Shown here in pieces: positions 8,100-11,925 of a DNA stretch of 64,000 nucleotides. The position numbers and the translations under genes were made by a program. The DNA comes from Octopus vulgaris (lineage: Eukaryota). The DNA is taken from contig OX597818.1 in the NCBI GenBank assembly GCA_951406725.2, positions 78,926,001 through 78,990,000 on the forward strand, in the 5' to 3' direction. Each line of letters starts with the position of its first letter. Position 1 is the first letter of the stretch. The notes under the pieces are model-generated. The model worked only from the letters and a program-made list of their open reading frames with translations, was not told where the DNA came from and ran no database searches.

Positions 8100-8757
8100 G
8101 TATACATTGTCTCCCAGACAATGTATACTCAAAAGCAATTCACGTAGGCATAGAGGGAAAAATAACGAAATTAGATTACTTGTGAGCGCGTTTCTGGGTT
8201 AGTTAGATATAGAGATGCTAGAAATACATCCCTATTCTAACATTCCCGTCATCAGCACAAGATTTCATTAAATTTACATTTGAGAGCGCTAAAAATCGAA
8301 CATACCCATCTGATTTGAGTAACCTCAGACAAACCATCGTCCACATCCAGTACTAAAGAATTCAAAACATACGATTGAAGCTCTGCATCTTCCCCTGTCC
8401 ACCCACCTGGGTTATAGAGCAACACATTCCTACAGAAGAATTTGTAGTTTATTATCAGGGAGAGAATTATATTGTCAATAATAATAAGGGTAAAATTAAT
8501 TAATTAATTAGTAATTAATAATTTTACCAAGCAGAGTCTGGGAGACTCTTGTTATAGTAGAGGAAATAGCTAAATTCTTTGGCTGCTATTTCTAAAAGTT
8601 CGGTATGTGGTAAAGCAATTTTTTTTGCTGAACCCTAATTATATAAAGTAATGTTTAAATTTACCGTAAATGGTCCTTTTACATGCTGAACTCTGCTTGG
8701 TAAAATTATTAATTACTAATTAATTAATTAATTTTATCCTTATTATTATTGACAATA
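8100..8757. mobile_element. Non-coding hammerhead-bearing repeat (family A, copy 1) with internal inversion
   Basis: Homologous to 11095-11925 and 37291-38400. Contains an inverted ~68 bp repeat (8471-8538 / 8690-8757) and ends in (TA)n. Confidence 0.8.
8179..8261 (-). ncRNA. Type I hammerhead ribozyme motif, probably inactive (GCU at the cleavage triplet)
   Basis: CTTGTG-CTGATGA-long stem II-GAAAC-GC-GCT-CACAAG. Confidence 0.7.
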
Positions 8758-8793
8758 TATATATTTATATATATATAGATATATATATATATA

Positions 8794-9865
8794 CTAAACT
8801 TAATATCCAGCGTTGCACGGAATAGTTTGCCAGTTTGTAGGATTGGAATCCATGCTACTTATGCATGTATATATATTTAACCAAACTTCTGGACTTATTT
8901 AATTTGAACTATCCAAATAACAGTAATCAATTTGCATGAGTAGAAGCTTTTTAACAAATTCTATCCTGAAAATCACCTGTTACTTTTGTTTTAAAGTGAA
9001 AGATGTAAGAACGTGTATATAAAATGGATGTGTGTGCGCGAGTGTAAGAGAGAGCCACTTACACATACATGAGAACTCACACGTTCACCCACTGGCTCTC
9101 TCTTTGTTTCTGTCTGTCTGCCTGTCTCTTTCTCTCTCTCTCTCTCTCTCTCTCTCTCTCTCTCTCACACACAAATGCACACGTACATACAAAAAAGATG
9201 TACACATATGTACTGATGTATGTACGTATTCATGACAACACACCCCTTCACTCACTCTATCTTTTTCTCTCTCGTTTTTTCTCTCTCTTTCTCTCTTTAT
9301 CTTTCTCTCTCTATCTCCCTCTCTTTCTTTCTCTCTCTCTCCCTTTCACACACACACACGCCCATTTCTTATACACGTACATACACCTTTCACTTTCCCC
9401 CCTCTTTCACTTTAAAACAAAAGTAAATTATAAATTTTTACGGAAATTAACTAATTCCGGATGATGAAATCACATTCAGTTAAAAACATTTCTAAATGAT
9501 TAAAATATTATGTACGTCAAAAGGTCGACGTTTGTTTTCTTAGAGAGCGCGACGACTATGTGTGTGTATATGTCACAGTTAGTAGACGTGTAGTTTTTGT
9601 TGATTGACACGCCACGACATTCATTATATTTGTGTGTATTATATATGTGTGCTGACATTACTGAAGCCATGTTTCTTCCTCAAGAAATTACACACAACAA
9701 ATGTGTTTAATCGTTTACATAGAGGTCCAAATGTCACAAAAATGTGTACTACAGTGCCAAAGATAAGTATGAAAATAAATGTACAAAAAATTAGATACTT
9801 ATACTATTTCTGAGATATTTCAGTTACACACAAACATACCCAGAGGTTTAGTATTGTTGAGAAGT
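8794..9865 (-). mobile_element. Probable non-autonomous Helitron-like element
   Basis: Minus-strand subterminal hairpin ccgtgcaacgctgg followed by a degenerate TTAG|T end. Internal (CT)n/(CA)n. The other boundary is uncertain. Confidence 0.4.
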
Positions 9866-10646
9866 ATCTATCTATCTATCTATCTATCTATCTATCTATC
9901 TATCTATCTATCTATCTATCTATCTATCTATCTATCTATCTATATATATATATATATATATATATATATATATATATATATATATATATTATATATTACA
10001 TACATAAACACATTTATATATGTATATATATATATTTACATACATAAACACATATATATATGTATATATATATATATATGTCTATATATATATGTATGCA
10101 GGTATGTGTGTATATATATATATATATATATATATAGATAGATATATACATATCTATCTATTTATTTATTTATTTATTTATGCAGCTGAGGATAGCTAAA
10201 TTTTTGGTAGAAATGACTAATTTTGTCCCTCTTAGTGTGGCATGTATGTATAATAATGCCCTCTATATATAAATTAATATGTTCAATAAGAAAGAATTAT
10301 TTTCGAAATTTTTTCTCTTATGAGGTCTTTCACGCTATCTACCTGACAATTTCTTGTTAAGTTTTCCTTATTAAGAGGTTGTCCTTAATTGCTATATATA
10401 TATATATATATATATATATATATATATATATATATATATATATATATATATATCTATGTATTTACATACATAAACACATTTATATATGTATATTTATATA
10501 TTTACATACATAAACACATATATATATGTATATATATATATATATATGTCTAAATATATATGTATGCAGGTATGTGTGTATATATATATATATGTATATA
10601 TAGATAGATATATACATATCTATCTATTTATTTATTTATTTATTTA

Positions 10647-10732
10647 TGCAGCTGAGGATAGCTCTGCATTCGAATTGATGTAATGTTTGCGTTTTTTAAT
10701 TAAATAGAGCCGCTTGATACAGTCGTACTGCA
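10647..10732 (+). ncRNA. Hammerhead ribozyme motif (family B), GAAA mutated to GAUA
   Basis: TGCAG-CTGAGGA-stem II (gctct/agagc)-GATAC-AGTC-GTA-CTGCA. A truncated homolog at ~7385-7440 (-) retains GAAAC. Confidence 0.65.
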
Positions 10733-11094
10733 TCACCTCTGGATATCCTGCTGCTTATTTTGATTTTATATACATATATACACACGTACATGTAAACATA
10801 TGTATATATATATATTTATATATATATATATATATATATATATATATATTATATATATATATATATGTATATATATACATATATAAATGTGTGTATATAT
10901 ATATATATACACACGTACATGTAAACATATATATATATATATATTTGTATATATATATGTATATATATATATATATATACATATATAAATGTGTATATAT
11001 ATGTATACACACGTGCATATATTATATTTATACATATAAGTAACATATATTATATATATGTATATATGTTATATATATACATACATATATTTTA

Positions 11095-11925
11095 TATAAT
11101 TAGGGTTCAGCAAAAATAAATTTGCTTTACCACACACTGAACTTTTAGAAATAGCAGCCAAATAATTTAGCTATTTCTTCTACTTTAAGAGGAGTCTCCC
11201 AGATAATGTATACTCAAAACATTTCACGCCGGTATAGCGGGAAAAATAACGAAAGTTCACACGAAAGATTGATCACTTGTGTACGCATTTCTGGCTTAAC
11301 TGGATATAGAGATGCTAGAAATACAAACTTATTCCAATATTCCCTGATAATATACTACAGATCCTTCTGTAGGAATTTGTTGCTCTATAACTCACGTGGG
11401 TGAACATGGGAGGATGCAAAGCCTCATTCGTACGGTTTGAATTCGTTAGTACTGGATGTTCGAGGTTAGTTCGTCTGAGGTACTCAAATCAGATGGGTAA
11501 GTTTGATTTTTAGTTCTCTCAAATTTAAATTTAATGAAATCATGTGCTGATGAAAGCAATATTGGAATAGGGTTGCATTTCTAGAATCTCTATATGCAGT
11601 TAACTCAGAAACGCGTTCACAAGTGATCAATCTTTCGAGTGAACTTTCGTTATTTTTACCTCTATACCGGCGTGAAATGTTTTTGAGTATACATTATCTG
11701 GGAGACTCCTCTTAAAGTAGAAGATATAGCTAAATTTTTTGGCTGCTATTTCTAAAAGTTCAGTGTGTGGTAAAGCAAAACTTTTTTGGGCTGAACCCCA
11801 ATTATATAAAATAATGTTTAAATTTACCATAAATGGACCTTTTATACACTGAATACTGCTTGGTAAAATTATTAATTACTAATTAATTAATTAATTAATT
11901 TTACCCTTATTATTATTATTATTGA
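11095..11925. mobile_element. Non-coding hammerhead-bearing foldback repeat (family A, copy 2)
   Basis: Inverted arms at ~11095-11345 and ~11555-11808, flanked by (TA)n. Confidence 0.85.
11541..11623 (+). ncRNA. Type I hammerhead ribozyme motif
   Basis: CATGTG-CTGATGA-long imperfect stem II-GAAAC-GC-GTT-CACAAG. Core boxes are intact. Confidence 0.7.

Follow-up and report, generated by a model that had tools for sequence, protein, structure and literature searches.

A hammerhead-bearing, retrozyme-like repeat family of Octopus vulgaris with insertion scars resembling those of Penelope-like elements

Which enzyme moves the retrozymes of animals is an open question, and it is raised in concrete form by a stretch of 64,000 nucleotides (nt) of the Octopus vulgaris genome (assembly GCA_951406725.2, contig OX597818.1, positions 78,926,001 to 78,990,000 of the forward strand), referred to here in its full length as the window. 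Three insertions of one non-coding repeat lie in this window, and each of them carries a hammerhead ribozyme motif together with an inversion. Based on the anatomy of the repeat unit and on the scars that its copies have left, we class the repeat as a retrozyme-like, non-autonomous Penelope-like element (PLE) family that is larger than typical retrozymes and bears direct scars of PLE integration. That retrozymes are derivatives or parasites of PLEs has already been proposed, with the case argued from shared hammerheads, co-occurrence and kinship of pseudo-long terminal repeats (pLTRs) and with the mechanism left open (PMC7229834; bioRxiv 10.64898/2026.07.22.740005).

The repeat unit and its copies

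An earlier note, made from the letters of the DNA, had placed three related copies in the window, and BLAST comparisons between them (E 1e-40 to 1e-113) bear this out as three homologous insertions, all delimited by that homology:

8100-8759, mixed strands: copy A
about 11088-11931, mixed strands: copy B
37287-38402, mixed strands: copy C

Profiles built from two alignments (A1 and A2) matched at these three loci only, the next match in the window having an E of at least 2.5. Copies A and B form one subfamily (86-92% alike) and copy C represents a second, B and C being identical at 382 of 524 aligned columns (73%). Two further regions with weak BLAST matches, 20424-20546 and 42056-42205, are missed by the family profiles and were rejected as members. 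The motifs of the family had no matches in the viral, metagenome and genome contig collections; among public sequencing runs the octopus repeat is apparently abundant and present under three species-level labels.

Read in the sense of the hammerhead, the unit measures 567 nt in copy C (37834-38400) and ~590 nt in copy B (11341-11930), and its boundaries in the former are as follows:

37834-38400, plus strand: complete unit of copy C, 567 nt, with ends set by a read-derived joint from 38400 to 37834

This joint comes from the contigs of 4 of 24 listed public runs (X2, X3, X9 and X14), which were compared with the forward arm of copy C only. The head-to-tail passage from 38400 to 37834 occurs in three of the four runs, i.e., in three contigs of X2 (depth 1107), one of X3 (depth 25) and one of X9 (60 nt on the shorter side), and it is absent from the X14 contigs in the same comparison. 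X2 and X3 carry different organism codes. None of the listed runs is on record as RNA; X9 is one of two compared runs whose type was guessed as RNA and may be DNA, and its contig is counted neither for expression nor for a circle. A homologous junction lies within copy A, where the unit start continues into 70 nt from the end of a preceding unit, a segment identical at 69 of 70 positions to the copy's own 3' end. The forward arm of B begins ~7 nt past the unit start seen in A, and the 14-nt junction sequence is found in the centre of C once forward and once reversed, with just 5 of its letters informative. Eight X2 contigs run past 38399 with a junction-like start followed by different sequence (consensus agreement 0.74), an observation that suggests a further subfamily or a path to an autonomous partner.

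Units B and C hold no stop-free frame longer than 82 codons and none from an ATG longer than 67, and their GC content is 0.32-0.33. Frame scans of the units and tblastn revealed no open reading frame (ORF) for a reverse transcriptase (RT) with GIY-YIG endonuclease within the element; the tblastn search, made with 51 PLE-type proteins, gave no match on the three loci at E <= 0.5. The predicted circular folds of the units are far better than those of shuffled sequences (z of -5.2 and -6.2), with 63% of positions paired. The unit is closed and non-coding, and its closure upon itself without an ORF speaks against the possibility, raised with the earlier note, that the copies are simply the 3' untranslated region (UTR) of an autonomous element. 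With 567-590 nt it exceeds the 150-450 base pairs (bp) typical of invertebrate retrozymes (PMC7229834), a size that describes them more than it defines them; vertebrate consensus sequences span 51-972 bp (bioRxiv 10.64898/2026.07.22.740005).

Architecture of the insertions

An inversion is present in all three copies, as the earlier note had claimed, and B and C consist of duplicated arms arranged head to head. Two AT-rich sites near the 3' end of the unit serve here as landmarks: P1, where the inverted arms of B and C have their outer ends, and P2, the 3' end reached by the forward arms, the sequence between the two being the tail.

8100-8112, plus strand: forward piece of copy A, 13 nt, ending at a GTCT/AGAC micro-hairpin where the inversion begins
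8109-8467, minus strand: inverted 5' part of copy A, from unit start to micro-hairpin, 86.5% identical to the forward arm of B
8468-8537, minus strand: end of the preceding unit in copy A, 70 nt, joined head-to-tail onto the unit start
8537-8759, plus strand: forward 3' part of copy A, the structured 3' module, 223 nt, with a TA-rich repeat next to it
11088-11341, minus strand: inverted arm of copy B, from helix II to P1, without tail, 91% identical to the forward arm
11341-11931, plus strand: forward arm of copy B, a full unit
11814-11931, plus strand: tail of copy B, ~118 nt, forward arm only
37287-37782, minus strand: inverted arm of copy C, without tail, holding a mirror hammerhead (C3 at 37543)
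37769-37834, no strand assigned: centre of copy C, with the junction 14-mer forward (37769-37782), then a second, short stretch of the unit start in inverted orientation, and the 14-mer as reverse complement (37821-37834)
38310-38402, plus strand: tail of copy C, ~93 nt, forward arm only, with (TA)n next to it

The inner junctions differ from copy to copy. The inverted piece of A amounts to 429 nt in total and both junctions of this copy centre on a GTCT-GGG-AGAC micro-hairpin, B has a microhomology of 4-5 nt (TTCCC/TCCC), and C has a switch region of 52 nt between its inverted arm and its forward unit. The arms of B have diverged (251 matches and 24 mismatches over 275 aligned positions); those of C are 99.8% identical (490 matches, 1 mismatch and 5 gap columns). 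Because both C arms carry the same letters missing from the family majority, e.g., at 38066 and 38194, they would stem from one template or have been homogenised later. The outer ends follow a different rule, and the claim that each copy has its own breakpoint stands for the inner junctions and fails here: in B and C alike, the inverted arm terminates no more than ~4 nt from P1, and the forward arms of these copies extend ~118 and ~93 nt beyond it to P2. Relative to one unit, the extent of the arms is 7 nt short in B, 5 nt beyond in C and 70 nt beyond in A.

Five of the six copy ends, including all three 3' ends, lie at most 15 nt from a (TA)n run with n of at least 5, a neighbourhood that takes up 6.2% of the window as background. 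The claim that each copy abuts (TA)n is true of these five ends and not of the 5' end of A, which is 417 nt away from the nearest such run. Comparison of the flanks for a target-site duplication returned TA-repeat matches only, unresolvable within TA repeats. The further proposal that inversion is intrinsic to integration at every insertion agrees with the three copies but was overstated, an inverted copy being an already published hallmark of PLEs. The informative signal is the common outer end (the tail) together with the common unit start, rather than inversion as such.

The hammerhead and the 3' module

Hammerhead positions are numbered here by the standard scheme. The same numbering is used in PMC4209133. 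The ribozyme motifs and the module downstream of them are as follows:

8179-8261, minus strand: hammerhead of copy A, C3 at 8255 and position 17 at 8185, with C for U16.1 and a long helix II
11541-11623, plus strand: hammerhead of copy B, C3 at 11547 and position 17 at 11617, core intact and base of helix II decayed
38053-38115, plus strand: hammerhead of copy C, C3 at 38059 and position 17 at 38109
38208-38390, plus strand: 3' module of copy C, conserved, with three predicted hairpin domains

The cores at 8255 (minus), 11547 (plus) and 38059 (plus), along with the mirror core at 37543 (minus), lie at approximately unit position 210-226, in agreement with the claim that the hammerhead occupies an equal relative position in the copies. 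A relaxed hammerhead pattern returned 19 matches in the window, and the 15 beyond these four cores include one duplicate register for each C arm. Rfam yielded a single match at gathering threshold in the window, to a 5.8S rRNA-like sequence, and no hammerhead; at E <= 10, none of 90 matches within 7900-12100 belonged to a hammerhead family. The motif is of type I, with a helix I of 6 bp, a base of helix II of 3-4 bp and a short palindromic helix III. Helix II is interrupted by an invariant AAU/UAA internal loop, and its distal part comprises 15 bp in A and 5 bp in C.

The core is more conserved than its surroundings, identity between B and C being complete at the 11 invariant core positions and 66-70% in the flanks (128/193 and 76/108); by hand arithmetic, 11 of 11 would occur by chance with a probability of ~0.014 at a background of 68%. 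The claim that the core is kept must be restricted to that pair, since copy A has a C at position 16.1. Stem I reads CTTGTG/CACAAG in A and TTTGAG/CTCAAA in C, with six of six pairs formed in both. In four aligned and related rows, 7 of 24 pairs of a structure derived from the copy A fold (without pair 10.1-11.1 and helix III) have changed on both sides, a number reached by none of 500 shuffles and compared with 0-2 in slid controls. For the nine pairs anchored to the core, A and C differ by eight substitutions and not a single pair is broken; simulation of these pairs gives P = 0.0013, 0.004 and 0.029 at transition fractions of 0.52 (the observed value), 0.67 and 0.9. Such covariation, which the earlier note had read as selection on the fold, does support selection on a predicted hammerhead structure. 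Because the window copies are imperfect, the selection would pertain to their source lineages and not to the copies themselves. Among the 40 of 104 read variants listed, the ribozyme is affected at N7, at position 17 and at 38066, and at 38066 the majority letter in the reads would create an A-U pair at 10.1-11.1 in the family of copy C.

The last 165 nt of the unit (83% identity between B and C) are better conserved than the ribozyme stems. The 3' module is predicted to fold with z of -3.2, -3.3 and -6.2, the sense strand folding better, and RNAalifold predicts 58 pairs for the three rows, four of them changed on both sides. One helix of 11 bp has all its pairs in each of the three copies although it has undergone several substitutions. 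It closes the second hairpin, whose loop region contains P1, and P2 lies just past the third hairpin; each of the two sites is preceded by CCC and an AT-rich run. These AT-rich runs could pair with nicked (TA)n.

Mode of insertion, alternatives and implications

Three sets of published observations on PLEs are pertinent here. Their insertions often carry an inverted, 5'-truncated copy and a tail of 30-40 bp and show a bias for microsatellites (PMC8557442). Inversions of the head-to-head kind, palindromic at their junctions, have been described, as has mobilisation in trans through nothing but pLTR sequences (PMC3846280). A PLE protein studied in vitro nicks both strands of AT-rich DNA, and its cDNA begins at two sites inside the RNA that lie one tail length apart, hammerhead cleavage being dispensable (PMC11167929). 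We consider it likely that the octopus family is parasitic and non-autonomous, its RNA being copied into (TA)n by a Penelope-like RT/GIY-YIG endonuclease acting in trans. The absence of an ORF, the closed unit and the (TA)n at the 3' ends support what the earlier note had suggested, namely a non-coding, microsatellite-associated, retrozyme-like family, and the inverted arm, the tail and the (TA)n bias make its further suggestion of PLE dependence a likely one.

The sequence of events might be envisioned as follows. Tandem source arrays would be transcribed, and the hammerhead, probably as a dimer formed through the palindromic helix III, may cut the transcripts to monomers that could be circularised. 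The PLE protein would bind the 3' module and nick (TA)n, and cDNA synthesis might be primed both at the 3' end (P2) and at P1 ~100 nt upstream, two internal AT-rich sites that would each serve one target strand; such double priming would leave the arms head to head, one of them with a tail. Because no arm ends at the cleavage site, the template would have been continuous there, whether as an uncut multimer or as a re-ligated circle. Copying would then halt or switch template approximately one unit from its start, and short stretches of microhomology or palindromes would serve to join the arms. An internal-priming variant of the same event is the likely origin of copy A.

In copies B and C the stop falls no more than 7 nt away from one unit length. 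A circular template would explain such stops directly, and a linear multimer, with the RT stalling where the unit before ends in its last hairpin, would explain them too, so that the stops do not divide the two. The more specific idea that a PLE enzyme copies a circular ribozyme RNA of 570-590 nt from two fixed starts, proceeds through the re-ligated site and halts or switches after one turn is advanced only tentatively, and we give it rather less than even weight.

A number of observations weigh against this scheme or some part of it. With respect to the ribozyme, two to three lineages and a structure taken from the copy A fold underlie the covariation, and none of the three window copies has a flawless hammerhead: in addition to the C at core position 16.1 in A, the 10.1-11.1 pair is mismatched in all three (C.A, A.A and U.U), the base of helix II in B is paired at one of four positions, and the hammerhead fold of B lies 5.7 kcal/mol above the free fold. 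With respect to the unit, no contig from the four runs spans its whole length, which bears on multi-unit arrays with two hammerheads, the window itself containing no such array, and the summed contig depth in X2, a qualitative measure and not a copy number, is 5e5-1.4e6 over the last 160 nt as compared with 3e3-2e5 over the first 200 nt. Loose contig ends with mixed sequence occur before 38235 and after 38399, and 3' stumps may make up many of the copies, or the 3' module may also belong to other, possibly longer, elements. With respect to the scar, the tail is about three times the published length, copy A has no P1 end, and the joints listed in the read contigs include one opposite-strand joint only, in a comparison in which contigs drop rare variants and the centre of C lay outside the stretch compared, both of which bear on the frequency of inversion. 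Finally, no partner with a common 3' end was found when the unit was compared, by eye and through three motifs that line breaks could hide, with the hammerhead flanks of Hydra-1_Obim and the 3' ends of three Octopus Naiad consensus sequences.

The depth profile also favours the best of the alternatives, i.e., that the copies derive from an autonomous PLE as 5'-truncated pLTR or 3'-UTR stumps and as partial tandems, with the unit start as a preferred truncation point. Autonomous PLEs normally show 5' truncation, partial tandems and inverted stumps; pairs of opposite-strand hammerheads 100-700 bp apart were reported in 2014 and ascribed to truncated PLEs (PMC4209133); and in the reads, depth climbs strongly toward the 3' end while the eight X2 contigs past 38399 diverge. 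We regard this alternative as unlikely, since one 3'-to-5' junction is shared by two subfamilies that are ~27% diverged and by three runs from two organisms, and the forward arms of B and C both begin within ~7 nt of it. In having a helix I of 6 bp and a helix III that is short and palindromic, the hammerhead moreover belongs to the tandem-repeat type and not to the minimal PLE type. The metagenomic autonomous PLE L001, a relative of a PLE remnant in the window, provides a point of comparison: it has a compact hammerhead (1683-1790) after its GIY-YIG ORF and (TA)n ~75 nt past the hammerhead, followed apparently by a further PLE piece, and neither it nor a second element, L002, has any similarity to the octopus unit.

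A hammerhead tandem repeat could also have been moved by a long interspersed nuclear element (LINE) of the RTE, CR1 or L1 type, with (TA)n as a slippage tail. Twin priming by L1 gives an inverted 5' part abutting a forward 3' part. The geometry of copy A, where these parts are nearly non-overlapping, resembles this outcome, and LINEs are described as the most abundant order of transposable elements in O. vulgaris. The overlapping, duplicated arms of B and C, their common outer end and the TA repeats on both sides are not products of twin priming, and a tail combined with head-to-head duplication has been described as PLE-specific, all of which leaves transfer by a LINE improbable. It is more improbable still that the palindromes, especially the near-perfect one of C, are assembly artefacts or later fold-back rearrangements of monomers at the DNA level: inverted repeats do trouble assemblers, the C arms are almost identical and the read contigs were compared with the forward C arm only, but the two arms of B have 24 differences over 275 aligned positions, B and C came to a stop at one site independently of each other, and the centre of C holds a junction sequence that was found independently in the reads.

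Insertion by a PLE enzyme in trans, which we prefer, places the octopus family between known systems. With the animal non-LTR retrozymes it shares a non-coding, low-GC (32-33%), head-to-tail unit that is predicted to be highly self-paired and has one type I hammerhead (PMC7229834), as well as the 6-bp helix I, the short palindromic helix III, the co-occurrence with PLEs and the proposed movement by them. It differs from them in its long helix II with a conserved AAU/UAA internal loop and in its copies, which are dispersed, about one unit long and equipped with an inverted arm and tail; the word "inverted" occurs nowhere in the main text of PMC7229834 and once in bioRxiv 10.64898/2026.07.22.740005. 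PLE insertions resemble it in the head-to-head inverted, 5'-truncated copy, the tail on one arm, the palindrome or microhomology at the inner junction, the (TA)n bias, the hammerhead upstream of the 3' end and the template uncut at the hammerhead (PMC3846280, PMC8557442, PMC11167929). Unlike PLEs, the octopus unit is without an RT/GIY-YIG ORF, its tail is 93-118 rather than 30-40 nt and its 3' end is ~290 nt past the hammerhead, a motif that has none of the features of the minimal PLE hammerhead, i.e., G10.1-C11.1, a helix II of 7-8 bp and a helix I of 4-5 bp (PMC4209133). Chlamys elements such as MRC1 and Chlamys-N4 likewise parasitise PLEs without coding for protein, insert head-to-tail, have microsatellites as targets and are often truncated at the 5' end. 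They come from algae, however, their targets are (C)n or (CA)n, hammerheads are mostly missing from them, and their 3' ends are those of known autonomous families (PMC8557442, PMC9977147). The octopus family thus appears to work like a non-autonomous PLE while having the anatomy of an animal non-LTR retrozyme, and its membership is provisional.

PLE remnants exist in the same window as the copies:

5735-6370, plus strand: broken remnant of a PLE ORF, RT thumb region, 60% to an O. vulgaris protein of 803 amino acids (aa)
53499-53852 and 60411-60632, plus strand: pieces of a GIY-YIG endonuclease from a different PLE-type family (the first matching Pfam GIY-YIG at E 2.4e-7)

Relatives of the first remnant have an RT, a Cys-rich linker and, at the C-terminus, a GIY-YIG domain. 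None of the three segments is contiguous with the copies or matched by the family profiles, and they were rejected as parts of the family. Octopus Naiad and Hydra families favour (TA)n, and 31 recently active Penelope-like families are known from O. vulgaris. The host gene is of the SRCR-domain (DMBT1-like) type and extends over 86-16858 on the minus strand; its exon at 12886-13050 (minus, 55 aa) is 100% identical to an O. vulgaris DMBT1-like protein. Since SRCR exons flank both copies A and B on that strand, the two are intronic. The hammerhead of A is in the sense of the host pre-mRNA, ~150 nt from an exon, and this same copy bears the U16.1C change, a single case.

Several other repeats in the window may be recorded. 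At 20463-20680, a head-to-head palindrome with near-identical arms of ~110 nt stands beside (TA)n, without a hammerhead and missed by the family profiles; it is possibly a stump of another PLE-type family. An inverted repeat of 319 nt (55973-56291 and 57566-57884, 98% complementary, TA runs at the inner ends) encloses ~1.27 kb with two related repeat units. A diverged 5.8S rRNA-like sequence (39258-39416, plus strand, 75.7 bits) directly precedes a copy of a short interspersed repeat. By resemblance judged by eye from the ORF list, 17554-19576, 40591-41327, 54622-55702 and 62979-63732 correspond to a CR1/L2-type RT, two Tc1-like transposases and a LINE with a restriction-like endonuclease.

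Every ingredient of the picture drawn here is known, the inverted 5' arm, the tail and the microsatellite bias each having been published for PLEs. The literature on retrozymes, cephalopod hammerheads and PLEs within our coverage, which mostly excludes subscription journals, contains no description of the octopus family or of inverted-arm and tail scars on a retrozyme unit. A 2026 annotation of O. vulgaris repeats lists 190 Penelope-like consensus families and, in its main text and supplement, has no occurrence of "hammerhead", "ribozyme" or "retrozyme"; the unit may already be catalogued there or elsewhere without a description of its ribozyme. The present analysis flags this octopus repeat as ribozyme-bearing, a designation absent from the parts of the octopus repeat literature available to us.

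For the specialist, the family is useful rather than startling. It pairs the anatomy of a retrozyme with the PLE-specific scar of inverted arm, tail and TA target, its cDNA ends lie at about one unit length, and it offers a small natural substrate for the in vitro assay of PLE activity and for a test of circular versus linear templates. If a PLE enzyme did copy a circular RNA in one turn, the copies would constitute direct evidence for a rolling-circle, PLE-driven retrozyme cycle, and in the 3' module PLE mobilisation in trans would have a defined handle acting in cis.

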